Below, one piece after another: positions 12,780-61,762 of a DNA stretch of 64,000 nt. The notes beneath the pieces were generated by a model. The model saw nothing but the letters and a program-made list of their open reading frames with translations, was not told the origin of the DNA and ran no database searches. The position numbers were made by a program, and so were the translations under genes. This DNA comes from Candidatus Enterousia sp. (GTDB lineage: Bacteria; Pseudomonadota; Alphaproteobacteria; Rs-D84). Each line of letters starts with the position of its first letter. The first letter of the stretch is position 1. Location of the stretch: the NCBI GenBank assembly GCA_045593065.1, contig JAZNVZ010000002.1:71183-135182 (forward strand). The letters run 5' to 3'.

Positions 12780-13345
12780 TTTCTTGGCATTCCAATCGTC
12801 ACCCCGCCGCAGGGCGGGGCCCAGTTGGCGCAATGCGCCAACTTGTGTAATAAAGCAAAAAAACACAAGTTTTGCGGAACGCAAAACTGGATACCGCGCG
12901 TCCGCGGTATGACGGGACTGTTTATTCCCCCGCCACAAAATCGTCACCCCGCCGCATAATCGTCATTCCGGCGCATGCCGGAATCCAGTTTGCGGAGCAA
13001 ACTTGCTCACTTATTACACAAGTCCGCCTATGGCGGACTGGATACCGCGCGAAATTCGCCCACGAAAATTTGCAATTTTCGCGGGGCCCGAAACCGCGGT
13101 ATGACGATTCTGTGGCGGAATCATCAAAATTCAAATAACACAAAAAATATTTGTGATTATAATCAAAATATGATACAATACCCAGCGACAGGTAAGGGAG
13201 AAAACCAATGAAACCCGCAGACAACAAGTAGATGACGCAAACGAAGTTTGCGGAATCGTCACGGTTGCCCCGCAGTCACGGCGCCGGGAGCGCAGCGAAC
13301 GCAGGCGGACGAGGGAATCCTACACACACCTGGAAACGAACGGAG
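12780..13345. repeat. GC-rich cluster of short palindromic repeat units (REP/MITE-like) in an otherwise AT-rich intergenic region
   Basis: Recurring units: aatcgtcaccccgccgc (x2), ATTCCGGCGCATGCCGGAAT inverted repeat, tggataccgcgcg...cgcggtatgacg (x2), tttgcggaacgcaaa / tttgcggagcaaac, tgaaacccgcaga (x2); no credible ORF. Confidence 0.6.
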
Positions 13346-13377
13346 AGATAATTATGAACAACCTGAAACCCGCAGAA

Positions 13378-13412
<35 letters not shown>

Positions 13413-14744: not shown

Positions 14745-15219
14745 TTAACCCGCACCGCCCGTTTGTCCTGTTTTATCATGATGAAAACAGATGGGCGGTT
14801 TTCCCCCGATAAACAATAAAAAAGTAGGGCGAAAGGATTGGCTCGGCATAAATGCCTGCGCCGCATTCGTTAGCACTCAAACTTCGCAAGGCTCGTTTTC
14901 GTTTACTCATAATCGAACCAGACAACTTCGTTGTGATGTATCAAATCCAAATTTCGCAACGATCACAAAATTAAAACCACCATAAAGGTGGTTTGAATTT
15001 TCTGGTCGGGGGCAATTCCCCCTCGATACACAATAACAAAAATCTATAAAAATTCGTGGGGACAAAAACTCCATTTTTATGATTTTTTTAATTGTGTATT
15101 CTCGTATTCACCATGCGTGTCTTGTTGGCTGTCGCCAACAAAAACTTCGTTTTCAAACGGCACCTGTCGTGCCGTTGACACTCTGGCGCATCCTTTCGCC
15201 CCGATGTAAACAGTTTAAT

Positions 15220-15253
15220 AAAAAAAGACCATCTTGTGATGGTCTTTTTTTAT
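15220..15253. terminator. hairpin terminator immediately 3' of tRNA-Pro
   Basis: agaccatc-ttgt-gatggtct flanked by A7 and T6. Confidence 0.6.
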
Positions 15254-15259
15254 TAAATC

Positions 15260-15336
15260 TGGTCGGGGCGAAAGGATTCGAACCTTCGACACCTTGGTCC
15301 CAAACCAAGTACTCTACCAGACTGAGCTACGCCCCG
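15260..15336 (-). tRNA. tRNA-Pro (anticodon TGG)
   Basis: Reverse complement CGGGGCGTAGCTCAG...anticodon loop TTTGGGA...TTCGAATCC...CGCCCCGACCA; 77 nt with CCA. Confidence 0.85.
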
Positions 15337-18229: not shown

Positions 18230-18306
18230 GCGCCCATGGCTCAACTGGATAGAGCAACAGATTTCTAATCTGTGGGTTGCAGGTTCGAGTCCTGCTGGGC
18301 GCGCCA
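18230..18306 (+). tRNA. tRNA-Arg (anticodon TCT)
   Basis: GCGCCCATGGCTCAACTGGATAGAGC...anticodon loop TTTCTAA...GGTTCGAGTCC...GGGCGCGCCA; 77 nt. Confidence 0.85.
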
Positions 18307-18488
18307 TCCGTCTTTGCTAACGCAAATCCGCGATTAGCAATTTTTTTATTATGTGGAATTAGCAGGACGAGAACCGACCAAAGTTGCGTCAGCAACGACA
18401 GGTTCGACAACGAGTAGATTTTGCAAACAAAGTGCAGCAAAATCGTTAGGAATGCCCCACAGCCGGCACAATTTTGTGCCGAGCGAGG

Positions 18489-18508
18489 GAGTCCTGCTGG
18501 GCGCGCCA
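18489..18508 (+). repeat. 20 bp direct repeat of the tRNA-Arg 3' end (gagtcctgctgggcgcgcca), 182 bp downstream of the gene
   Basis: Exact copy of tRNA positions 18287-18306; att-like scar. Confidence 0.75.
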
Positions 18509-19776: not shown

Positions 19777-19853
19777 GGGTTAGTAGCTCAGTTGGTTAGA
19801 GCGGAGCGCTCATAACGCTTTGGTCGTGGGTTCGAGTCCTACCTAACCCACCA
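19777..19853 (+). tRNA. tRNA-Met (anticodon CAT); elongator/initiator/Ile2 identity not resolved
   Basis: GGGTTAGTAGCTCAGTTGGTTAGAGC...anticodon loop CTCATAA...GGTTCGAGTCC...CTAACCCACCA; G1-C72 paired, so probably not initiator. Confidence 0.8.
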
Positions 19854-21216: not shown

Positions 21217-22291
21217 TTATTGCATTTTTTGCAGATACGCCAACATAAATTCGTCTAAATCCCCGTCCAATACAGCAGTTGAATCTGTGTTTTCTACATT
21301 GGTACGAACATCTTTGATTAATTGATATGGGTATAAAACATAGTTTCTAATTTGACTGCCCCATTCAATTTTCTTTTGTGCAGCCAATGCGGCATTTTCT
21401 TCGGCCTCGCGCTTTTTTAATTCCAGTTCGTACAGGCGGCTGCGTAATATTTTCATTGCCATATCTTTGTTTTGAAATTGGCTGCGTTCGTTTTGGCATG
21501 TAACCACAGTATTCGTTGGGATATGCGTAATACGAACCGCGCTGTCTGTTTTATTAACATGTTGTCCGCCAGCACCCGAAGAACGATATGTGTCAATACG
21601 CAAATCTTTGTCGTTGATTTCAATTTCAATATTGTCGTCAACATCAGGCCAAACATCCACAGATGCAAAACTGGTCTGGCGTTTGCCATTGGCATTAAAC
21701 GGAGAAATGCGAACCAGTCGGTGTACGCCGATTTCGCCCCTTAACCAACCGTATGCATTATCGCCGTCAATTTTTATTGTTGTGCTTTTTAATCCAGCAA
21801 CATCCCCAGGGTGTTCGTCAACAGTTGTGCAAGAAAACCCGTGACGTTCTGCCCATCTGGTGTACATGCGTGCCAACATTTGTGCCCAATCCATGGCCTC
21901 GGTCCCGCCTGCGCCGGCCTGGATAAATACAAATGCGTTGTTTTTGTCGTTTTTACCATTGAATAATGTGATAAATTTTGCGTGTTTTGCGCGCACAGAC
22001 AAAGATTCAATCGCATTAATAACATCTGGGTCATCGGGGGCCATTTGATATAAATCAACCAGGTTGTTATAATCTGTTTCTAACGCTAAAAAATCAGCCA
22101 ATGTTTTTTCCAGACCAGATTTTTTTTGTAATAACAAACGCGCAGAATCAGGGTCATTCCATAAATTTTCGTCTGCGGTCTTGTCGTTTAATTGTGCAAT
22201 TTCAGCCCGTAAATTATCAGGGTCAAAGAAACCCCCTTAACGCGCTAATGTCGTTTTGAATTTGGGACAAGATGTCATTTTGTATTATCAT
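21217..22291 (-). CDS. prfB: peptide chain release factor 2 with programmed +1 frameshift
   Basis: GGQ motif (SGAGGQHVNKTDSAVRITHIPT); short ORF1 (MIIQNDILSQIQNDISALRGFL) ends at the CTT TGA C shift site preceded by internal SD AGGGGG; the +1 frame continues DPDNLRAEIAQ... into the long ORF. Confidence 0.85.
22222..22237 (-). promoter_or_regulatory. RF2 autoregulatory +1 frameshift site (AGGGGG TTT CTT TGA C)
   Basis: Minus-strand sequence AGGGGGTTTCTTTGAC 22 codons into prfB; canonical SD-assisted CUU UGA C motif. Confidence 0.8.
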
Positions 22292-23759: not shown

Positions 23760-24911
23760 ATGAAGGTATCAAGACGAACGCTTTTGAAAATGTCTGGGGT
23801 TGGTGTTGCGGCATTTACAATGTTGCCGCGTGTCGCATTTGCGGGTCGAAATTCTGTTTTGTCGTTGCGCACAGGAAACCAACCAGGTGGAAAAACGCGT
23901 TTGGTAATTGAAACATCTGCGCGGCCATCTTATGATTTGTCATATCCTGCGAATCAATTAATTGTATCGTTGCCAAATACTGTGGCGGGTGGTGTTGCGC
24001 CAAAATTGGCTGATGGAACATTGGTGAAAAATTTACGCCAGGTGCAAAATGGCGACAAATTACAGATTGTCGCAGATTTGCGCGGTAATGTTGTGCCGAT
24101 TGAAAAATCTGGGGTTATGATTTTATCTCCAAATGGCGACAGTGAATATCGTTTAGTATTTGATTTTGTTGGTGGGGCATCTGGGGCATCTGGAACGGCG
24201 GGCGGAACAACGGCAAAATCTGCAACGCCGGCAAAAAAATATGTCGTCGTGATTGATGCAGGCCATGGTGGCAAAGACCCTGGGTGCATTGGCAAGGGTG
24301 GTACCCAGGAAAAAACAATCGTATTGTCTGTGGCCCGAAAATTAAAGCGCGAATTAGATGCGATTGGATTTAAAACATATTTAACACGCAGTGATGATAC
24401 TTACTTAAAATTAGGGGACAGGGCGGCGATTGCCGAAAAACGGCATGCTGATTTGTTTTTGTCGCTGCATGCCAATGCGAACCCCAGTCGACAAACCCGT
24501 GGATATTCAGTTTATACATTGTCTGAAAAGGCATCGGACGAAGAGGCACGCAAATTAGCGGAAACAGAAAACGCGGTTGATAAAATCGGGGTTGAAGGGT
24601 TTGCTGGGTTTTCCAAAGAAATCCGTGTGGCATTATCGTCTTTGCAACAACGCGCGGTGGCGGAATTGTCCGAAGAGTATGCGTCAACATGTGCGCGTGC
24701 CATGAATAATGCGGACATTGCCCGTTTGCCGGGGCCAAACATTCGTCATGCGCCGTTCGCGGTTTTGCGTTCGACTGTGCCTGGGGCTTTGATTGAATTA
24801 GGACATTTATCGAATGTTGCCGAAGAAAAATTATTAAAATCGGATGCGCACCAAAACAAATTGGTTCGTGCGATTGTAAAATCTGTAAAAAATTATAATT
24901 TTGATGTTTAA
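23760..24911 (+). CDS. amiC: N-acetylmuramoyl-L-alanine amidase (Amidase_3, AmiC-like) with Tat signal
   Basis: Twin-arginine signal MKVSRRTLLKMSGVGVAAFTMLPRVAFA; N-terminal AMIN-like domain; catalytic domain VVIDAGHGGKDPG...SLHANA. Confidence 0.85.
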   Translation: MKVSRRTLLKMSGVGVAAFTMLPRVAFAGRNSVLSLRTGNQPGGKTRLVIETSARPSYDLSYPANQLIVSLPNTVAGGVAPKLADGTLVKNLRQVQNGDKLQIVADLRGNVVPIEKSGVMILSPNGDSEYRLVFDFVGGASGASGTAGGTTAKSATPAKKYVVVIDAGHGGKDPGCIGKGGTQEKTIVLSVARKLKRELDAIGFKTYLTRSDDTYLKLGDRAAIAEKRHADLFLSLHANANPSRQTRGYSVYTLSEKASDEEARKLAETENAVDKIGVEGFAGFSKEIRVALSSLQQRAVAELSEEYASTCARAMNNADIARLPGPNIRHAPFAVLRSTVPGALIELGHLSNVAEEKLLKSDAHQNKLVRAIVKSVKNYNFDV

Positions 24912-24952
24912 TTGTTGAAATTAAAAAGAAAATATATATAATCGACCCATAC

Positions 24953-25043
24953 GGAGATGTGGCAGAGCTGGTTGAATGCGCGCGACTCGAAATCGCGTAT
25001 ACGGGCGACCGTATCGGGGGTTCGAACCCCTCCATCTCCGCCA
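24953..25043 (+). tRNA. tRNA-Ser (anticodon CGA)
   Basis: GGAGATGTGGCAGAGCTGGTTGAATGC...anticodon loop CTCGAAA...long variable arm...GGTTCGAACCCCTCCATCTCCGCCA; 91 nt. Confidence 0.85.
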
Positions 25044-25191
25044 GGAATAAAAAGGCACGCGATTTATTGCGTGTATTTTTATTCGTGTGATGTTTTGGGT
25101 TCGAACCAACGAGTGGGGGTTCGAACCGTAGCAAAAAGGCGGAATAACGCCGGTTTGCCCACAGGGCAAATTTTGCAAGGTGGCGAAGCAC

Positions 25192-25208
25192 CCCCTCCAT
25201 CTCCGCCA
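25192..25208 (+). repeat. 17 bp direct repeat of the tRNA-Ser(CGA) 3' end (cccctccatctccgcca), 149 bp downstream of the gene
   Basis: Exact copy of tRNA positions 25027-25043; the intervening 148 bp also contains T-arm-like fragments (gggttcgaacc x2). Confidence 0.7.
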
Positions 25209-25368
25209 TCCGCTTTCGGGTTTGCCCACAAAATTTTTCAAATTTTGCGGGGGCCCGTTTTCGCTATAGCGAGATTGCATCCAGCAAGAAATAATATGCG
25301 ATTTTTTGTATTTGTTTTGTGTTTTGAAATGTGATAAAATATTGTTGTATATAGATGGGGGGGGATTT

Positions 25369-26247
25369 ATGAAAAATTATATTGTTATCTGTGTGTTGTG
25401 TGGTTTGATGTTGCCTGCATTTGGTGCAAATCGTTCTATGATTGCGGCGGCGCCAGCCGGCAACGACAGTGTTCGTGCCACCGCCATCAAGAATAATCAA
25501 TTTGTAATAAACAACAAATCAAATGACAATGTTAAATCGTCTGTGCGCAAACAACATGGTGTTGCCGTTTTATCTGCGGTGCCTGTGGATGAAACCCCGG
25601 GTGTCAGTGTGGTTGATGATGACCCACGGCCTGCGGATTCGCGTATATTAGAAAATGCCACGAAACGCGCCGCGTGTGTTGATAATAATGTTGGCGCATC
25701 AAACACATTTGTGTGGGCATCCCGTAACAGCAATACATCCAGTTATTCAACAATGATAGAAGATACAGAAAATCCTGAAAATAATGTTTGTTTTGTCGCG
25801 GTTTCTATGCAGTCCAAGGATTCACGTGTAAATATTTCTGATATCCAACCGCGTTATTTTGCAATGGGTGATGTGGTAAATTGCGGGTCTTGGGTTGACC
25901 AGGGTGTTTTAGAAAAACGCATTCTTGACGGCAAAAAAACGGTTCGTGTGTTGTCTGCGGTTGGCGCGGCGGTTGGTGGTGCGGCATTGGGTGTCGGCGC
26001 GATGGAGGCATTTGGAAACAAACTGTTGGCAAAAAATGATAGTTTGTCGGGATTAGAAGGACAAAGAGCGTTGGATGATGATAATTTGTTGGTTTCCAGG
26101 TTGTTGTCCGTCAAAGGGTCGGATGATTATAACAAAGTATATCAGGCCATAGAAACGCTTGCAGACGGTTGTAAAAGCTCGAACGATGGTGTGTGCGCAA
26201 AACACAACTGGAATCAAATAAAATCTCAGTTGGATAGCAGACAATAA
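25369..26247 (+). CDS. secreted hypothetical protein
   Basis: Signal peptide MKNYIVICVLCGLMLPAFGA; Gly/Ala-rich hydrophobic segment; no motifs. Confidence 0.5.
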   Translation: MKNYIVICVLCGLMLPAFGANRSMIAAAPAGNDSVRATAIKNNQFVINNKSNDNVKSSVRKQHGVAVLSAVPVDETPGVSVVDDDPRPADSRILENATKRAACVDNNVGASNTFVWASRNSNTSSYSTMIEDTENPENNVCFVAVSMQSKDSRVNISDIQPRYFAMGDVVNCGSWVDQGVLEKRILDGKKTVRVLSAVGAAVGGAALGVGAMEAFGNKLLAKNDSLSGLEGQRALDDDNLLVSRLLSVKGSDDYNKVYQAIETLADGCKSSNDGVCAKHNWNQIKSQLDSRQ

Positions 26248-50782: not shown

Positions 50783-50859
50783 GCGAGCGTAGCTCAGTTG
50801 GCTAGAGCGCAACCTTGCCAAGGTTGAGGTCGAGGGTTCGAGCCCCTTTGCTCGCACCA
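50783..50859 (+). tRNA. tRNA-Gly (anticodon GCC)
   Basis: GCGAGCGTAGCTCAGTTGGCTAGAGC...anticodon loop TTGCCAA...GGTTCGAGCCC...TTTGCTCGCACCA; 77 nt. Confidence 0.85.
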
Positions 50860-50955
50860 AAGTTTTAAAACCGTCCGTTAGGGCGGTGTTTAATTTTGTC
50901 GGCAAAGGGGCGAGAATCTCGCCGTAGTGAAACGCAGGCGGATTGCGAGGCGAGG
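50843..50955 (+). repeat. 113 bp direct repeat, left copy (tRNA-Gly 3' end plus 96 bp)
   Basis: 112 of 113 identical to 54245-54357; a further 18 bp copy of the tRNA 3' end lies at 50976-50993. Confidence 0.9.
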
Positions 50956-51200
50956 TTATGAAATAACCGAAGTACTTTGCTCGCACCAAAGTTAAAATGT
51001 TAGAAATCCGGGCATTTGCACCGGATTTTTTGTTTTATATCGCAAATTACCGGTGCGGATAATGTTTTGAATTTTCAACATTTTTTGCTTTGCATACAAA
51101 AAACGCAGAAATCCGCCGTTTTTTGATAATTTACTATATCGGGGAAATAGTTTCTATCCAAATATGATGCAAAAAGTGCCCATAAGGGCACTATTTTTAA

Positions 51201-52124
51201 TTAAATTAAATCCGAATATGGCAAAGACTTGATATATTTTTCCATATAAACCCAGTCAGGTTCACCTTTATTATCGACAGGTAGTTTTATTTGATGCAAC
51301 ACAAAATCTTTTTGACGATATTGTCGTCCATATGCATACCTATACTTATCCATACTTATAACGGATGCTATAAATAATTTTATAAATTTGTTCAATGGCG
51401 TTTTTTCTTTTAACACTAAAATATTATCATCACAAGCAAAATCATATGACCTATAAAAACAATTACAAAACATATCAATCGTTATTGAGTTGTTGTATAT
51501 TTTCATTTCTGGATTTGATATATAATCAGATATACCCTCGTTTGATGCACCAGCCGTTGCCAATGGTATTTTACCAGGAATTCTGTTTTCTTTTGTTAAA
51601 CGCACTCCACGAGCAACACCGAACAAATCGGACAACTTAAAATGTTTCCATTTTGTCGTATCAAATTGTGATTCTTTGCGTTTTATTTTTGTACCAATTG
51701 AGCTGTAATCAATTTTGTATTTTTTTAACCAATCCGGCAATGGCGGCAAATTGATGTTTTTCAACGTTTTGTTCGCCTGACGGCCATAACTATAACGATA
51801 CGCATTCATTTTTATGACATGGCAATAAAACAATTTTTCTTCCAATGACATTTCTTTTTTAGGTATAAGCAAATATAAATCACGTCCACTGTAAAAAGGC
51901 TTATCTTGAACAAAGGTTGATAAAACACTGCCACCGCCAGCACACGTAAGTATTCCTGCCGGTTGTGGTTCTTTCCCAGAAATGCGTTTTACCCTTGCTA
52001 CAACACCATTGTTTTCAGCCGTTCTGGCAACAAAATTTATTGCATCTGCATCATCGGACTGTTCCAGAGCATCAAGTTCTAGATTTATTCCATATTTAAT
52101 ATCAAATAATTCAGATACTAACAT
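51201..52124 (-). CDS. restriction-modification specificity subunit (two tandem target-recognition domains; BcgIB-like)
   Basis: Internal two-fold repeat (SELFDIKYG...YRYSYGRQANK vs LSDLFGVARG...YRYAYGRQYRQ); directly downstream of and co-oriented with the MTase-ENase gene. Confidence 0.65.
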   Translation of the reverse strand: MLVSELFDIKYGINLELDALEQSDDADAINFVARTAENNGVVARVKRISGKEPQPAGILTCAGGGSVLSTFVQDKPFYSGRDLYLLIPKKEMSLEEKLFYCHVIKMNAYRYSYGRQANKTLKNINLPPLPDWLKKYKIDYSSIGTKIKRKESQFDTTKWKHFKLSDLFGVARGVRLTKENRIPGKIPLATAGASNEGISDYISNPEMKIYNNSITIDMFCNCFYRSYDFACDDNILVLKEKTPLNKFIKLFIASVISMDKYRYAYGRQYRQKDFVLHQIKLPVDNKGEPDWVYMEKYIKSLPYSDLI

Positions 52125-52126
52125 TG

Positions 52127-53989
52127 TTATTTACTCGTTTTTATCAGGTATGCCAGATAATTTTTTACCGTCTGTTCAAAATCAGATTGTTTCAAATTTG
52201 AATAATCGGTTTCCATATACGCTTCACATAACCACTCATCATTCCATTTAACAGGTTTTTTGGCGGTCAACCCATCTTTGACATCCAAATTTTCATATAA
52301 ATCCAGCCACTCTTTTTTGATTTTTTCCCAACGATTGAATTTATCAATGCGTCCAAGTTTTTTTGCTTTCACAAAACCATCATTTTTATAATATCCAAAG
52401 AACGTTTGTTTTGTTGAATCATGCGGTTTATGTGCTGTCCAAACCATGACACATACGTTGGTGTTGGCATTGTTTGAATAAAATATATCATCCGGCATTG
52501 AAAACACCGCTTTTAATGTATGGTGTTTGAACAATTTTTCACGTTCTGTTTTAAATTTGGTTCCGATTGCACAAGACATAGGCACAACCACAACCCCAGT
52601 TCCGCCAGGTTCTAATAAATCCAACATATTTTGAACAAAAGCCAGTTCAGTATGGTCTTTTTGTGAATACGGTGGGTTAATCAGACCAACATTTAAATGT
52701 TTTTCTTTTAACCATTTAACAATATCTGCACTAAAACAGTCGCCATATTTTATATTTGATTTACCATCACCACGAACAATCATATTTGCAATAGCCAATG
52801 TATAAATATCGTCATTAAATTCTACACCATATAAATGATTGCGTTTTATGTCGTCTATCTCATTGTCATTCGCGCCTTTGAACATTTTTGACATTGCCGA
52901 CACCAAAAACGCCCCAGACCCACAGCAAATGTCGACAACTTTACTATTTTTATTTACACCGGCCAAATCACACATAAATTCTGTCAAATGTTGCGGTGTT
53001 AAAACTATTCCTAATCCTTTACCATCACCGCCACTATATTTTACAAATTCATGATAAAATATTCCAAGTGCATCAATTGCACTATCTGCATAATCCATCA
53101 TTGGTTTAATTTTTCTATCCAATTCGGATATATACCATAATAAAGAATTATCTTCATTCAATGGAATGTCTTTAATTTTTCCGTCTTTTCCTATTTTTTC
53201 AAAATGCTTTTTTATGTCGCTAATCTTATCTTGTCTGATATCGCTGTTATCTAAAACGGTTATGATTGCATCTTTTAACAAACTCATTAAAGACCTAAAA
53301 GAATTCTGGTTTTGATAATTATTTACAAAATCATCATCTTTTAATGCGATTAAAATTCCGGCAATAAAGACGGGTTTATCTTTTTCCGTAATTTTTAAAA
53401 TACGTAAATTATCATGCATAACAAGTGCCAACTTACGAATTTCATCAATCGACACTTTTTTGCTAACTTTTTCACCTTTAACCATACGTAAATAATTTTC
53501 CGGGGCATATAAAACATCTTTACCTTTGCTTAATTCTTGTGGTTTTTCTTGACCTTTGCGCCAATCAAAAGCGCTAACCTTGTAATTATCCGATGATGTT
53601 CCAGATACAGCAATCGCAATCACATTAAAATAATCTTTGATAAATTTTGCATAATACAACGCACCGTCCACCGCAAACGCTTCCGGTTGATTCCAATTTT
53701 CTGATTCATGCTTTTTTAACGATGCTTTACATTCAACAACGATAACCGTATCACGTGCTTTGTCAAATGTTATCACAAATTCCGGTTTACCAATTCCTTT
53801 GCCACCACAATCATATTGATTCAAATCACAAATCTTTGGTTTGCCACCGGCACGTTCCAATGCTTCACGTAAATCACCGTTAATTTTTGATGCATCAGAT
53901 TGTGGATAAACAACACCCCATGAATTTTTACCGAGTGCAAAATCCATCTCTTTTTGTGTTAAATCCTCGGTTAAACGTTCACTTGCCAT
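52127..53989 (-). CDS. Type IIB/IIG-like restriction-modification protein: N-terminal PD-(D/E)xK nuclease fused to gamma-class N6-adenine DNA methyltransferase (BcgIA-like)
   Basis: Nuclease motif FDKARDTVIVVECK; MTase motif X GIVLTPQHL, motif I DICCGSGAFL, motif IV NPPY (GLINPPYSQ); 620 aa. Confidence 0.78.
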   Translation of the reverse strand: MASERLTEDLTQKEMDFALGKNSWGVVYPQSDASKINGDLREALERAGGKPKICDLNQYDCGGKGIGKPEFVITFDKARDTVIVVECKASLKKHESENWNQPEAFAVDGALYYAKFIKDYFNVIAIAVSGTSSDNYKVSAFDWRKGQEKPQELSKGKDVLYAPENYLRMVKGEKVSKKVSIDEIRKLALVMHDNLRILKITEKDKPVFIAGILIALKDDDFVNNYQNQNSFRSLMSLLKDAIITVLDNSDIRQDKISDIKKHFEKIGKDGKIKDIPLNEDNSLLWYISELDRKIKPMMDYADSAIDALGIFYHEFVKYSGGDGKGLGIVLTPQHLTEFMCDLAGVNKNSKVVDICCGSGAFLVSAMSKMFKGANDNEIDDIKRNHLYGVEFNDDIYTLAIANMIVRGDGKSNIKYGDCFSADIVKWLKEKHLNVGLINPPYSQKDHTELAFVQNMLDLLEPGGTGVVVVPMSCAIGTKFKTEREKLFKHHTLKAVFSMPDDIFYSNNANTNVCVMVWTAHKPHDSTKQTFFGYYKNDGFVKAKKLGRIDKFNRWEKIKKEWLDLYENLDVKDGLTAKKPVKWNDEWLCEAYMETDYSNLKQSDFEQTVKNYLAYLIKTSK

Positions 53990-54244
53990 AAATCTTTCCT
54001 TCCTTTACGCAATAATTATAGAAGTTTTTTTACAATCACCACAATAAAAAAATCATTCTCTCGGTATCTATTATACCACAAAAAATAATCGCAAATAACA
54101 AAAACGTAAAAAAATCGTTTGCTTTTACCAAAAAACACGATAAACCCAAAGGGTGTTAGGCAAAGCGTCAGGCAAACTGATAAAAAAGCAGGTAAAAAGC
54201 GGTCAAAAGGGTTAAAAAATTGGCTAAAAATGGTCAAATGCGTT

Positions 54245-54357
54245 CCCCTTTGCTCGCACCAAAGTTTTAAAACCGTCCGTTAGGGCGGTTTTTAATTTTG
54301 TCGGCAAAGGGGCGAGAATCTCGCCGTAGTGAAACGCAGGCGGATTGCGAGGCGAGG
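54245..54357 (+). repeat. 113 bp direct repeat, right copy
   Basis: cccctttgctcgcaccaaagttttaaaaccgtccgttagggcgg...gcgaggcgagg. Confidence 0.9.
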
Positions 54358-54432
54358 CGACATATAGCCATCGAAGTACTTGACAAAATGAAATAATGCA
54401 CTATAATTGTCTTTGTCAATAAACCAAGGGAG

Positions 54433-54927
54433 ATGATTGTGGCACACAAAGATGTAAAATTAACAAAAACACAAAGTCAATACCTGGCGCAATACAAGTA
54501 TGATATCAGTAATGCCGTGATTGATAAATTTGGTGGTTCTTATCAAAATTACGAAACATTATGCAAGACATGGCGTCAACAAATGGATTACAGACCAGAA
54601 ATTGAAGAATTTATTTTATCTAATAATAACATTATATTGGTAAAGGCCTTGCCAGATTATGCTATGCGTGATTTGAATTGTATGTATGGTTTGTGCAACG
54701 GTATTGCCGAATATTTATCAAAATACATGATTAAAAAATCTGCGGGATTGACCAGGGCGACTGTCCAAAATGAAATTGTGAACAGAATATTTTTTAATTC
54801 GCCTGTATTTATAAAACATTTCCAGGCAAGATATAAAAAACCTTTGGATTTAGATAACGCGGGTTGGGTTAATGCAAATCCTGGGGTTGTCGCGATGGCA
54901 AACGCATTAAAAGCAAAACAATATTAA
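54433..54927 (+). CDS. hypothetical protein (164 aa)
   Basis: AAGGGAG SD, clean ORF, hairpin terminator at 54948-54977; no family recognised. Confidence 0.5.
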   Translation: MIVAHKDVKLTKTQSQYLAQYKYDISNAVIDKFGGSYQNYETLCKTWRQQMDYRPEIEEFILSNNNIILVKALPDYAMRDLNCMYGLCNGIAEYLSKYMIKKSAGLTRATVQNEIVNRIFFNSPVFIKHFQARYKKPLDLDNAGWVNANPGVVAMANALKAKQY

Positions 54928-60123: not shown

Positions 60124-61044
60124 TTAATTTTCAGGGTCGATGGCGCGGGGGTGCGCGTGGGCATAAATGTCGTTTATTTCCGCCATATTTACGCGCGTAT
60201 ATAATTGGGTTGTAGAAAGTGATGCGTGCCCCAATAATTCTTGTAAACTGCGCAAATCTGCGCCGCCGGACAGCAATGCGGTTGCAAATGTATGGCGCAG
60301 GGCGTGTGGTGTTACATAATCAGGTAATTGCAAATATGCGCGTAACTTTTCAACCGTTTTTTCCGCCATTCGTGCCGACATGGGCAATCCACGGACACTG
60401 CGAAACAATGGTTTTGTTGCATCGCCCATATATGGACATATGTCTAAATATTTTGCAATCGCATCATTGACCGCGGGTAACACCGGAACGATTCTTTCTT
60501 TGTTGCCTTTGCCAATTATGCGCAAAGTGTCAGGTCGATTTTGCATGTCGCATACGCGCAGTGATAATGCCTCGGAAATACGTAAACCACACCCAAAAAG
60601 TAATGTTATTAACGCCCAGTCGCGTGCGGCAATCCACGGATGGTTTTCGTCAATAGCACGGACGGCTGATTGCATATCTTGAACCTGGGTTGTTTCGATT
60701 GCTTTGGATAATTTGCGTGGAACTTTTGGGGACGAGATTAGGGCGATTGCCTCGTTTTTTATATCGTATTTTCGTGCAATAAATTTATAAAATCCGCGCA
60801 CAGATGACAATGCCCGTGCGGTGGATTTGTGTTCCATATTTCTGCGTGCGCGGTCAGCCAACCATGCCCGAAAACAAATCGTGTCAATACGACCTAAATC
60901 ATTTGGCAATAGTTCTGCGTTTGCCCAACGCACATAAAACGACAAGAAATCGCGAATATCTGTTTCATACGCTGTGGCGGTATGCGTGGAATATTGTTTG
61001 GTATTCAGTAAATAATCTATAAAATTGGCGATAATTTCGTTCAT
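60124..61044 (-). CDS. xerC: tyrosine recombinase XerC/XerD family
   Basis: N-terminal core-binding domain; catalytic R...HxxR...Y region (HALRHTFATALL...LGHASLSTTQLYTRV); start taken at ATG MNEIIANFIDYL. Confidence 0.82.
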   Translation of the reverse strand: MNEIIANFIDYLLNTKQYSTHTATAYETDIRDFLSFYVRWANAELLPNDLGRIDTICFRAWLADRARRNMEHKSTARALSSVRGFYKFIARKYDIKNEAIALISSPKVPRKLSKAIETTQVQDMQSAVRAIDENHPWIAARDWALITLLFGCGLRISEALSLRVCDMQNRPDTLRIIGKGNKERIVPVLPAVNDAIAKYLDICPYMGDATKPLFRSVRGLPMSARMAEKTVEKLRAYLQLPDYVTPHALRHTFATALLSGGADLRSLQELLGHASLSTTQLYTRVNMAEINDIYAHAHPRAIDPEN

Positions 61045-61045
61045 T

Positions 61046-61762
61046 TTACCTGATTTCAAATGTTGCAGACACTTGGACTTTGACATCGGTATCTTTGGAT
61101 GTTAATGTGCCAAATGCGCCGGCATCCATTGCCTCGGCAGTGGCCTTGGCGGCCATTAATCTATAATTTGCCGTTGGGTGCATGTCGTATGTGGCGTTTC
61201 CATAAGATACAGATAACAGTTTACCGATTGTACGGTCATCCCCACTAACCAACGCGGTTGCGCGTTCTTTGGCGTTGCGGACGGCATCGCCCAAACATTT
61301 TTCCATTATGGGTTGTAATGTTTCGCGACTGCTAAACATTTGCAAATTTCCAACATAAATATTTTCTTGACCAGCAAATTGATTTAGCACGGTTTCAATG
61401 GTGTCCATGTTCGCGGCAGAAACCTCGACAGCGATGGTGGTTTCGGTGCCCAAATTTACAGATTTTTGGGTTTGGTGGTTCCATTCGCTTTTTTCATAAG
61501 AATTAAATTCTGTTGTTTGAGATTTTACATCCAAAGTTGACAAAAACTCGTTGATTTCAGCAATCTTTTTTGTTGCGGCACGCATTGATGTTAATGCGTT
61601 TTTGTCCAATGTCGTAACCCGTAAAGTGATGGCGGTACGGTCGCGTGGCGCGGTTGTTAAACATTCGCCATTTGTGGACACGGTTCGGGTGGTTTCTGGG
61701 TAAAAATATGCGTAACCCACGACCGCTAAAATTGCGCCTAAAATCCAAGTTGCTATTTTCAT
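61046..61762 (-). CDS. SIMPL domain (DUF541, YggE-like) periplasmic protein
   Basis: Signal peptide MKIATWILGAILAVVGYA; SIMPL-like pattern of alternating beta/alpha regions; 238 aa. Confidence 0.7.
   Translation of the reverse strand: MKIATWILGAILAVVGYAYFYPETTRTVSTNGECLTTAPRDRTAITLRVTTLDKNALTSMRAATKKIAEINEFLSTLDVKSQTTEFNSYEKSEWNHQTQKSVNLGTETTIAVEVSAANMDTIETVLNQFAGQENIYVGNLQMFSSRETLQPIMEKCLGDAVRNAKERATALVSGDDRTIGKLLSVSYGNATYDMHPTANYRLMAAKATAEAMDAGAFGTLTSKDTDVKVQVSATFEIR

Follow-up and report, generated by a model that had tools for sequence, protein, structure and literature searches.

The 17-bp copy of the tRNA-Ser(CGA) 3' end that lies downstream of this tRNA in a genome of Candidatus Enterousia sp. 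is a true target-type duplication. Judged from its sequence, the DNA that ends in this copy (25044-25208) is a full-length, intact unit of the tRNA-linked repeat (TLR) type, belonging to a subfamily that we call E2, and the nuclease cassette adjoining it has decayed to a stub of its leader. Coordinates refer to the whole 64-kb stretch of DNA that was analysed (hereafter the window). Our preferred reading, to which we give a probability only a little better than even (about 0.55), is that 25044-25208 is a TLR-type repeat and that such repeats are derivatives or partners of a nuclease cassette, spread by break repair.

The repeat unit behind tRNA-Ser(CGA)

An earlier note on this locus had described a 17-bp repeat of the tRNA 3' end, a 148-nt spacer holding two T-arm-like boxes, and a hairpin terminator, all of which were recovered. 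The last 17 nt of the tRNA, CCCCTCCATCTCCGCCA, occur exactly at 25027-25043 and, 165 nt downstream, at 25192-25208 (17/17 identical), and the spacer has the length claimed; across the 64-kb window, 0.02 matches to this 17-mer would be expected by chance with three mismatches permitted. Both boxes, GGGTTCGAACC, are exact (25097-25107 and 25117-25127) and tRNA-derived, the tRNA's own T-arm copy lying at 25018-25028. With at most one mismatch the box gave nine matches against 0.76 expected, the remainder of which sit in real tRNAs, and the second box is part of a 13/13 match to the tRNA's own GGGGGTTCGAACC. The terminator scan found a stem of eight pairs and a T-run directly 3' of the tRNA (Table 1); a similar hairpin stands in the flank of a relative whose site is empty (L006; L-numbers denote related loci).

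Table 1. Features of the tRNA-Ser(CGA) unit and of the other repeat copies in the window
Feature	Position	Strand	Source
tRNA-Ser(CGA), CCA encoded	24953-25043	+	ARAGORN; Rfam tRNA model, 55 bits
First terminator, T1: hairpin 25055-25074 and T-run	25044-25088	+	Terminator scan; inverted repeat I1
Left inverted arm, IR-L/b: GATGTTTTGGGTTCGAACC	25089-25107	+	Read from sequence
7-nt loop AACGAGT between palindromic T-arm boxes	25108-25114	+	Inverted repeat I10; predicted hairpin
b' box GGGGGTTCGAACC (second T-arm box)	25115-25127	+	Sequence repeats, E2 alignment
E2-type TLR core: GTAGCAAAAAGGCGGAATAACGCCGGT, variable hairpin, then TTTTGCAAGGTGGCGAAGCAC	25128-25191	+	BLAST, alignment
a': direct copy of the last 17 nt of the tRNA	25192-25208	+	Sequence repeats
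GIY-YIG cassette leader remnant (TCCGCTTTCG ... TTCGCTATAGCGAGATTGC); ORF absent	25209-25278	+	Comparison with L132 and L184-L191
Canonical E1-type TLR behind tRNA-Arg(TCT) (18230-18306)	18307-18508	+	nhmmer, E=4.5e-22
Two tandem units behind tRNA-Pro(TGG) (15260-15336)	14827-15259	-	nhmmer, E=2.4e-20
Orphan E1 core, then start of tRNA-Ser(GCT) 3' part, AATCCTACAC	13220-13330	+	nhmmer, E=2.9e-13
Divergent TLR behind tRNA-Gly(GCC) (50783-50859); 14-nt end copy 50975-50988	50860-50988	+	
Third tRNA-Gly 3'-end copy (17 nt), with repeated terminator and TLR	54245-54376	+	

The left inverted arm is an imperfect reverse complement of the tRNA T-arm and the first acceptor bases; it includes the first T-arm box, and its position matches that of IR-L in other family members. 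The b' box, a direct copy of the T-stem 5' strand and T-loop, coincides with the generic start of the E2 core, while a' repeats part of the T-stem 3' strand, the acceptor 3' strand and the CCA. The spacer aligns over its full length to E2 copies associated with tRNA-Lys (L093), tRNA-Arg (L108) and tRNA-Glu (L132), as well as to one in L150. These share the invariant core GGAATAAC..CCGGT ... TTTTGCAAGG, between the parts of which a hairpin (TTTGCCC ACA GGGCAAA at 25154-25170 in the window) varies with compensating changes. The spacer had at first been taken for a degenerate, internally deleted copy of the E1 subfamily, because the E1 profile misses it; this reading was dropped once BLAST identified it as an intact member of a second subfamily.

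Past the 17-nt copy, the leader remnant is interrupted by a small palindromic hairpin module (approximately 25219-25259) that is also present in L005, L007 and L160. Its intact counterpart in L132 and L184-L191 reads CCA, then TCCGCTTTCGCT.ACGCTACAGCGAGATTG, and runs into the ORF; a tblastn search of the 64-kb window for the GIY-YIG ORF returned nothing, and the leader remnant is all that is left of the cassette. The earlier note had suggested a decayed integrated element, and part of that suggestion stands: the DNA is inserted and non-conserved, it ends in a target-type duplication, and a cassette remnant adjoins it. An integrase scar is not supported: no integrase gene or signature was found at this or the other tRNA sites, and the spacer belongs to a defined repeat subfamily and is not what a large island would leave as a random scar.

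Layout and distribution of the family

Family members lie directly 3' of a tRNA and are co-oriented with it, in the order tRNA, terminator, imperfect inverted copy of the tRNA 3' part, GGTTCGA box, core, and direct copy of approximately A58 to CCA. The core is made of conserved motifs with hairpins of variable sequence between them, and the core types that occupy this one position (E1, E2, M2 and a tRNA-Gly type) are mutually unrelated; the E1 motifs are CAAYRAGTAG, CGTYACGG.T.CCCCRCAG and CGAGGG. Across the family the terminal tRNA copy spans 14-21 nt, right-hand identity can run on through the terminator (up to 60 nt), and the inverted arm and 3' copy pair over 10-20 positions.

In the window, TLR copies stand behind four of the six tRNAs, and one more is an orphan. 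The tRNA-Arg(TCT) copy ends in 20 nt of the tRNA 3' end (18489-18508) and has a predicted four-way junction fold (z=-4.5). Behind tRNA-Pro(TGG), unit 1 is of M2 type and is bounded by inverted and direct partial copies of the tRNA 3' end, and unit 2 (14827-14953) is of E1 type with a terminal partial copy of 13 nt. The orphan retains the first 10-11 nt of the tRNA-Ser(GCT) 3' part, the tRNA itself being absent nearby. The repeated tRNA-Gly segments 50843-50974 and 54245-54376 bracket a 3.2-kb low-GC island with hsdS and hsdM. At gathering score, Rfam returned six tRNAs and nothing else from the whole window, and around three of the copies no known family for the element was found at E<=10.

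Among 94 tRNAs in related loci, which for this count were picked solely by their amidase gene, 19 are followed downstream by their 3' 13-mer again, in direct orientation; there were no upstream copies of the 3' 13-mer and no copies of the 5' 13-mer. The copy usually ends 129-206 nt past the tRNA, the exception being the tandem array in L038; further arrays occur in L025, L096 and L137. When metagenomes were scanned with the pattern of the E1 core, the commoner one, 71 of 88 matches had a same-strand tRNA upstream, representing at least 17 tRNA species. The first E1 unit lies 54-135 nt from the tRNA (more in tandem arrays), and the right junction in these matches is fixed, CGAGGG being followed directly by A58.

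Occupancy of the tRNA-Ser(CGA) site differs among close relatives. Nothing is inserted in L002, L003, L006 and L009; a TLR alone is present in the window, L007 and L010, whereas a GIY-YIG ORF occupies the site in L184-L187. Other close relatives carry different modules there. Two further loci, L012 and L027, have large ORFs (1113 and 1394 aa) between the amidase gene and an inverted tRNA-Ser. Exact-protein look-ups of the window's amidase, downstream gene and rplM matched no record. Where filled and empty sites could be paired (L031 with L033-35, and L036 with L028), the native flank lies to the right of the copy. Two cores that are 97% identical over 63 nt stand behind tRNA-Ser in L010 and beside a 5'-truncated tRNA-Arg(TCT) in L004, which suggests common descent and movement of cores between tRNAs.

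Almost all pairs in the stems are Watson-Crick; G-U pairs make up about 5% and show no strand asymmetry. From a MAFFT alignment, RNAalifold recovered hairpin H2 alone, with compensatory pairs, as length variation obscured the remaining stems. Strand-specific RNA folding was considered and set aside: the asymmetry of G-U versus A-C pairs was weak over the whole element (p=0.03), and neither of the two main hairpins showed it.

The linked nuclease gene and a proposed origin of the repeats

A gene encoding a 79-aa Slx1/UPF0213-like GIY-YIG protein was found directly 3' of a tRNA or TLR copy, and co-oriented with it, in all 11 contexts inspected; this linkage is newly described here. The order at the orthologous locus is amidase, tRNA-Ser(CGA), GIY-YIG, NUDIX. 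The ORF also stands behind eight other tRNA species and, in L132, L104 and L109, inside TLR units. Its leader starts directly after the CCA (type A at 23 places, type B in 8/8), and the L184 ORF is followed by the E1 3' half seen in L008 and L010. Judging by L184 and L186, the variant end CCCCCGTCGTAGCCA is more likely a diverged tRNA-Ser end than a tRNA-Gln copy. Among solved structures, the protein is closest to UPF0213 proteins and to the structure-specific nuclease SLX1. One of the nuclease genes (P0106) bears the label 'Candidatus Dependentiae' in its source, and a TLR unit is present on its contigs.

From this linkage we infer that the nuclease mobilises the repeats, which would be non-autonomous derivatives or partners of a short cassette composed of (i) a structured leader abutting the CCA, (ii) the 79-aa gene, (iii) a TLR core, and (iv) a tRNA 3'-end copy. 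The cassette would probably be transcribed from the tRNA promoter. Its nuclease would most likely cut near T-loop position 57/58, either in the tRNA gene or in branched or cruciform DNA that the palindromic T-arm and the terminator might form. Repair that copies a filled site would then insert the segment from A58 to CCA together with the element and keep the tRNA intact; the native 3' end, pushed to the right, would then be the downstream repeat and double as the right-hand homology arm. Later unequal crossing-over between repeats could give rise to arrays, deletions and rearrangements.

Three features weaken a GIY-YIG homing model of this kind: it does not account for (i) the making of the inverted arm, (ii) the shift of a core to a non-cognate tRNA without a chimeric tRNA, or (iii) the immunity of filled sites, since the left-hand tRNA keeps the presumed cut site after insertion. 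That the 64-kb window has no nuclease gene also speaks against it. The gene could also be a mere passenger at a recombination hot spot, like the restriction-modification (R-M) island behind tRNA-Gly.

Tentatively, and with clearly less confidence, the preferred reading can be taken further, such that TLRs are the non-coding modules and footprints of widespread, selfish, minimal Slx1-like GIY-YIG cassettes. Such a cassette would seat itself directly after the tRNA CCA, where the tRNA promoter would drive its expression; since it carries a copy of A58 to CCA, a filled site could serve as the repair template for a T-loop break whatever its genomic surroundings. Once folded, the inverted arm and the 3' copy might mimic the target duplex or four-way junction that the nuclease recognises. 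If so, what lies 3' of most tRNA genes in some reduced genomes would be the work of these cassettes, which would also promote rearrangements and the capture of islands.

A transcribed, functional RNA would account equally well for the conservation of unpaired motifs, for the location between two terminators and for the precedents in E. coli (RtT and RrA/B/F). Under that explanation, which we regard as unlikely, the TLR is a trailer RNA useful to the host that acts as a small RNA and is released by tRNA-processing enzymes because its 3' end copies the tRNA processing determinants; the repeat would be a processing signal, not an insertion footprint, although a selfish origin would be compatible with it. 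Its position between two terminators equals that of rrB in the T1-rrB-T2 arrangement of E. coli rrnB, and RtT is a detected RNA whose curated Rfam structure has a closing stem that pairs an inverted arm with the tRNA copy. The elements always share the direction of the tRNA; conservation falls on motifs predicted to be unpaired, the stems being variable; and several copies fold more stably than shuffled sequences (z from -3.3 to -4.5). However, presence is patchy at orthologous tRNAs among close relatives; truncated, orphan and tandem copies occur; and unrelated core types share one position. The stems, moreover, have very few G-U pairs and no strand bias, no promoter was seen, and the element is preceded by a fairly strong terminator.

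An origin that needs no dedicated enzyme appears very improbable. Replication template switching at the palindromic T-arm and terminator hairpins could copy the tRNA 3' part in both inverted and direct orientation, so that the family would represent convergent local duplications homogenised by gene conversion. The sequence GGTTCGAACC is itself palindromic, the stems are nearly perfect in their Watson-Crick pairing, and the succession of tRNA 3' part, hairpin, inverted copy, hairpin and direct copy is the outcome expected of quasi-palindrome extension. Yet core motifs that do not derive from tRNA (the E1 set, and GGCGGAATAACGCCGGT...TTTTGCAAGG in E2) are common to different tRNAs and genomes, so local copying cannot be their source; the junction is fixed at A58, and the elements are associated with a nuclease gene.

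We consider very improbable a classical att scar, in which a tyrosine-integrase island entered the 3' part of tRNA-Ser with a 17-bp duplication and was later deleted until some 150 bp of attL and attR arm DNA, now joined, were left. Direct repeats of a tRNA 3' end around foreign DNA are a hallmark of such integration, the filled and empty pairs show native flank on the right and new DNA with a new terminator on the left, and the tRNA-Gly copies do bracket a gene-carrying island. Against this, Pfam identified no recombinase among 20 ORFs beside tRNAs, and an integrase motif scan of the window and 41 related loci returned only a Xer-like gene about 35 kb away (60124-61086). Phage contigs lacked the core, the E1 motif giving just 12 chance matches on viral contigs, in coding regions. 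Nearly identical cores occur at no fewer than 17 tRNA species, and in each case the inverted and direct arms derive from the tRNA and match it; a single attP cannot supply this. The right junction lacks the TTCG of the T-loop, and independent random deletions would not yield so regular a size and layout.

A pseudo-tRNA left by a tandem tRNA-Ser duplicate (the tRNA-gene remnants that the earlier note had also proposed), or a chance repeat, would explain the T-arm-like boxes and the exact 3'-end copy, but is effectively refuted: at E<=10 the true tRNA was the only covariance match in 24700-25500, ARAGORN found none in the spacer, anticodon and D-arm remnants are absent, the sequence between the boxes is a non-tRNA repeat core found behind other tRNAs, and the chance expectation for the 17-mer is the 0.02 given above. 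The refuting check proposed in the earlier note gave a divided answer: the spacer bears no covariance likeness to tRNA, but it is not strictly conserved among relatives either.

Several other candidates were examined and discarded. Rfam matches to sX4 and permuted tmRNA were weak and driven by the real tRNA or its T-arm. The direct-inverted-direct arrangement misfits IS200/IS605-type PATEs, TnpB omega-RNA guides and IS110 bridge RNAs, as well as CAST homing spacers, retron/PBS-like self-priming and integron attC sites, and no partner gene for any of these was seen.

Comparison with known systems

TLRs are a recognised yet almost unstudied class, and their architecture is no curiosity of E. coli. 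In gut and rumen Alphaproteobacteria near 'Candidatus Enterousia' they lie behind most tRNA genes, at no fewer than 17 tRNA species, with several core types and fast turnover among close relatives. The 79-aa GIY-YIG gene is a concrete, testable candidate for the enzyme behind them, and its linkage points to a possible role for stand-alone GIY-YIG proteins, a large family annotated as 'hypothetical'. As the repeats mark synteny break points and the borders of at least one R-M island, they matter for genome evolution and for the assembly and annotation of metagenome-assembled genomes; they should be annotated neither as att sites of lost prophages nor as pseudo-tRNAs.

Other sources cited for the TLRs of E. 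coli are Egan & Landy 1978 and Rudd 1999. These TLRs, 22 in number, include the 178-bp RtT units of tyrT/tyrV (RF00391, rttR) and rrA, rrB and rrF behind 5S rRNA; at rrnB, read-through transcription and processing take place beside a repeated 18 nt, and for RtT and RrA/B/F, production of a discrete RNA by processing of a transcript shared with the gene upstream has been demonstrated (PMC8144298). The TLR-derived RrA/B/F RNAs bind Hfq and CsrA. The unit at 25044-25208 resembles them in lying directly 3' of a stable-RNA gene, co-oriented with it, and in repeating the last nucleotides of that gene at its own end (17 nt here, about 18-19 nt there), from A58 onwards like RtT. In both, the repeat pairs with an imperfect inverted copy that lies upstream of it (GGGGAAGGATGAGAAGC in RtT and CCCCAGGACGAGAACC in E1, then AAGGTTCGAC), tandem arrays occur, several copies are spread over the stable-RNA loci of one genome, and placement between two terminators, as for rrB, is possible. 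No homology of sequence or covariance was detected beyond the tRNA-derived parts: RtT (RF00391) had no matches at E<=10 in regions of the window and five element-bearing loci, and the E1 profile did not match E. coli RtT with nhmmer. With the two models mutually blind, homology to the E. coli TLRs rests on layout and short tRNA-derived motifs. The present repeats differ further in occupying most tRNA species of a small alphaproteobacterial genome, as opposed to ten loci in E. coli, in having several core types, in the terminator that parts tRNA from element, and in the linked GIY-YIG gene; in the literature searched, no such linkage was reported for the E. coli TLRs.

Integrative islands and prophages at tRNA genes, bounded by the attL and attR of a tyrosine integrase, have gene-less derivatives, the cis-mobilisable elements (CIMEs). 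All of these share with our repeats an intact tRNA, a bounding copy of its 3' end, a native flank displaced to the right and the possibility of arrays. Here, by contrast, no integrase was found, the elements measure 110-200 bp, one core serves at least 17 tRNA species, the element itself contains the target in inverted form, and the junction is at A58 without the rest of the T-loop.

The Seg proteins of phage T4 are free-standing GIY-YIG homing endonucleases, SegB being encoded in the tRNA gene region (PMC13096335). As with these and I-TevI, a small GIY-YIG gene occupies a fixed position by conserved genes and is polymorphic for presence, and spread is proposed to occur by break repair that copies gene and flanks. 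The element in the window lacks an endonuclease ORF, and both filled and empty alleles are present among relatives. The systems differ in that the protein here is a 79-aa catalytic domain of Slx1/UPF0213 type without a DNA-binding domain, that the host is a bacterial chromosome and not a phage, and that structured non-coding modules and a target duplication accompany it.

REP/BIME sequences, MITEs and the neisserial NIMEs flanked by dRS3 are small intergenic mosaic repeats. Like them, the repeats described here are short, palindromic and non-coding, exist in many mosaic copies, form rearrangement hot spots, and probably rely on a trans-acting nuclease or transposase. As in MITEs, inverted arms are present, but they are not element-specific; the duplication, of 14-21 nt, can run on through the terminator. 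The repeats are set apart by their strict linkage to tRNA 3' ends in one orientation and by terminal arms whose sequence comes from the local tRNA target and not from the element.

The element at tRNA-Ser(CGA)

The repeat at tRNA-Ser(CGA) is a genuine full-length tRNA-linked repeat (TLR), together with the stub of an adjoining nuclease cassette. The final 17 nt of the tRNA, CCCCTCCATCTCCGCCA, recur exactly at 25192-25208, and exact GGGTTCGAACC boxes lie in the spacer at 25097 and 25117, the second being a 13/13 copy of GGGGGTTCGAACC from tRNA-Ser(CGA) itself. The repeat, the two T-arm-like boxes and the hairpin terminator after the tRNA had all been remarked on in an earlier note, and all are real. 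While the profile of core type E1 gave no match to this copy, BLAST assigned 25128-25191 to another core type, E2 (GYAGCAAAAAGGCGGAATAACGCCGGT and ATTTTGCAAGGKRGYGMAGCA on either side of a variable hairpin), and placed other E2 copies behind tRNA-Lys (L093) and tRNA-Glu (L132), as well as in L150. The E2 copy in L108 is the second unit behind tRNA-Arg. The window copy aligns with E2 copies over its full length.

Three genes without a Pfam match lie 3' of tRNA-Ser(CGA), followed by rplM and rpsI. On the minus strand at 21217-22137 is an ORF similar to peptide chain release factor 2, apparently lacking the N-terminal part; the programmed +1 frameshift usual in prfB would fit this arrangement. 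Below the gathering score of 70, matches of 24-37 bits to sX4 (Rfam; an sRNA of Xanthomonas) span tRNA-Ser and its trailer in the window (24941-25124), L184 (1781-1947), L112 and L078; the sX4 family may be a tRNA-Ser-linked element too.

Features of the window, with positions in comparison loci where indicated
Feature	Position	Strand	Remarks
Orphan core and start of tRNA-Ser(GCT) 3' part	13220-13330
Amidase_3-type cell-wall amidase gene	23760-24911		upstream of tRNA-Ser(CGA)
tRNA-Ser(CGA)	24953-25043	+	ARAGORN and Rfam tRNA model
Terminator-like hairpin	25055-25074		8-bp stem, then T-run
Inverted arm of the family	25089-25107		first "T-arm fragment" of the earlier note
GGTTCGA box	25115-25127		second "T-arm fragment"
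Stub of leader, TCCGCTTTCG...TTCGCTATAGCGAGATTGC	25209-25278		split by small hairpin module
Palindromic module GCCCACAAAATTT..AAATTTTGCGGGGGCCC	25219-25259; L005 16294-16320; L007 16710-16739; L160 1215-1241		~30-40 nt
Low-GC island	50989-54244		3.2 kb, 33-35% GC; bounded by 50975-50988 and 54245-54261
hsdS	51201-52124	-	type I restriction-modification
hsdM	52127-53989	-	type I restriction-modification
Xer-type tyrosine recombinase, HALRHTFATALL...LGHASLSTTQLY	60124-61086	-

Layout, polarity and turnover of the family

The family has a common layout, a strict polar tie to tRNA 3' ends and turnover between relatives. Inspection of the 3' flanks of all six window tRNAs revealed (i) behind tRNA-Arg(TCT), a 20-nt 3'-end copy finishing 202 nt downstream, with a predicted four-way junction fold (z=-4.5); (ii) behind tRNA-Gly(GCC), at +129, a copy of 14 nt, with a third copy lying 3.4 kb away; and (iii) behind tRNA-Pro(TGG), inverted and direct partial copies flanking a different core, then a second unit. 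No 3'-end copy was found behind tRNA-Ser(GCT) or tRNA-Met. A PIF1-like helicase gene (PF05970; 19923-21194) begins 70 nt past the TLR-free tRNA-Met(CAT) (19777-19853). Directly 3' of the orphan core, in the gene with its ATG at 13356, a (CA)n microsatellite begins at about 13378 (13356-13400), which could make this a phase-variable start region.

Alignment of 17 copies gave the order that defines core type E1: tRNA; terminator hairpin; imperfect inverted copy of the tRNA's T-arm plus acceptor 3' strand; optional hairpin; GGTTCGA; CAAYRAGTAG; hairpin H2; CGTYACGG.T.CCCCRCAG; hairpin H3; CGAGGG; and tRNA from A58 to CCA. The hairpins vary in sequence and length, with complementarity kept. In L004 (4480-4729), a tRNA-Arg(TCT) lacking its 5' part (no ARAGORN call) precedes a complete E1 unit, and two terminator types stand in reverse order relative to the window tRNA-Arg locus. 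A further family of small repeats is made up of the palindromic module GCCCACAAAATTT..AAATTTTGCGGGGGCCC, which sits directly after CCA ends or within the leader; a similar hairpin follows tRNA-Arg(CCT) in L135.

An amidase query, with one genome per species, yielded 41 orthologous loci (L001-L041). The organisms are without exception uncultured Alphaproteobacteria of gut or rumen, of which several are labelled "Candidatus Enterousia". For 19 of the 94 tRNAs in these loci, a direct copy of the 3'-terminal 13 nt, with no more than one mismatch, lies within 700 nt downstream; none of the 94 has such a copy upstream, and for none are the 5'-terminal 13 nt copied. The direct copies end 129-206 nt past the tRNA, except at the tandem-array locus L038. 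A metagenome scan with the E1 core pattern matched at least 120 stretches, of which 80 loci were analysed. Among the matches listed for these, a same-strand tRNA lies upstream of the core in 71 of 88, representing at least 17 tRNA species, at a distance of 54-135 nt for the first unit and more in tandem arrays; the 3' end of that tRNA closes most copies, and the junction is always ...CGAGGG|A58. Viral contigs scanned with an E1 motif gave chance matches only.

tRNA-Ser(CGA) adjoins the amidase gene in nearly all of the 41 loci; its strand differs, the distance ranges from 50 nt to 4.4 kb, and the next gene past the tRNA varies between species, the closest ones included. Since orientation, distance and next gene all vary, the tRNA 3' flank is a synteny break point, which points to repeated inversions and rearrangements there. 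Among the ten closest relatives, the repeat is absent at tRNA-Ser(CGA) in L002, L003, L006 and L009, L006 sharing its tRNA-Ser variant with the window. [quoted passage not shown] Inverted copies are present in L005 and L010.

A linked GIY-YIG nuclease gene and rival readings

The TLR family co-occurs with a nuclease gene, a linkage of which we found no report in the literature searched. Inside the E2 unit of tRNA-Glu in L132, between tRNA and core, lies a 79-aa ORF encoding a GIY-YIG domain protein (PF01541/PF10544) with thousands of relatives, the nearest solved ones being UPF0213 proteins and the structure-specific nuclease SLX1. By tblastn, the comparison loci hold two further copies, both within TLR units, and no such ORF is left in the window. 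The three ORFs first found and a look-up of six database relatives gave 11 gene contexts, and in 11/11 the gene shares the orientation of a tRNA and lies close behind its 3' end: directly after tRNA-Ser(CGA), Thr, Glu, Gln and Leu, with a structured leader starting right past CCA, or, at tRNA-Pro, Gly and Ser(TGA), behind a single TLR unit. The protein from the Ser(TGA) contexts bears the source label "Candidatus Dependentiae". For type A the leader start motif stands right after CCA at 23 sites, and for type B this holds in 8/8. L184-L187 represent the orthologue of the window's tRNA-Ser(CGA) locus, whose 5' part comprises amidase, tRNA-Ser(CGA), leader and GIY-YIG gene, followed by ACGGTTTCCCCGCAG-hairpin-CGAGGGA, a degenerate tRNA 3' copy, a terminator and NUDIX; past the ORF lies the 3' half of E1, as present in L008 and L010. 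A tandem pair of GIY-YIG genes, with one leader copy each, lies behind tRNA-Leu(AAG) in L196 and L198 (1397-2000).

We propose that the nuclease mobilises TLR modules by cutting near T-loop positions 57/58; the downstream copy would be the displaced native tRNA end and would provide the right-hand homology arm for repair, and the tRNA promoter would drive the cassette. A serious rival, compatible with this reading, is a transcribed, functional trailer RNA of the sort reported for E. coli RrA/B/F. The inverted arm and the 3' copy form 10-20 pairs, mostly reaching CCA. Stems in the family are nearly all Watson-Crick (~5% G-U) without strand bias, a composition that DNA-level palindromes fit at least as well as RNA.

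The decayed integrated element of the earlier note survives in part: the spacer is patchy and not conserved among relatives, in keeping with inserted DNA, but a classical integrase scar is poorly supported. The Xer-type gene, with near-identical proteins in L028 and L033, is the sole recombinase signature found in the window. No integrase was seen at the hsdS/hsdM island, which is flanked by tRNA-Gly(GCC) 3'-end copies and a terminator-TLR repeat of ~130 nt. A perfect sigma-70 promoter (TTGACA, 17 nt, TATAAT; 54377-54410) stands where a tRNA 3' copy would be expected behind the second tRNA-Gly TLR copy, and faces a gene starting near 54433. Remnants of tRNA genes, also suggested earlier, are poorly supported, the spacer having no tRNA-like fold at E<=10 under the Rfam tRNA model. 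Chance is likewise a poor explanation, with 0.02 matches to the 17-mer (at most 3 mismatches) expected by dinucleotide-preserving shuffling of the whole window.

Comparison with E. coli tRNA-linked repeats

The window family is formally identical to the class that a published account names tRNA-linked repeats. In E. coli, ten loci have 22 copies in all, marked by a perfect match of 18-19 bp to the 3' end of the preceding tRNA or rRNA, and no function has been assigned to them (PMC8144298). The three 5S rRNA-linked copies lie between T1 and T2 and are produced by T1 read-through, and their RNAs bind Hfq and CsrA in vitro (PMC8144298). On inspection of the tyrT/tyrV loci, each unit opens with an imperfect inverted copy, GGGGAAGGATGAGAAGC, then AAGGTTCGAC, and closes with the last 19 nt of tRNA-Tyr, from A58; the Rfam RtT model pairs exactly this inverted arm with the tRNA-Tyr 3' copy. 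The layout is common to both groups, whereas the RtT model does not match the window elements, nor the E1 profile E. coli RtT. The term "tRNA-linked repeats" is scarcely used in the literature searched. The kind of element is already known from E. coli; what appears to be new is how large the family is, that gut Alphaproteobacteria have several core types of it, and that it is linked to a minimal GIY-YIG nuclease resembling Slx1.
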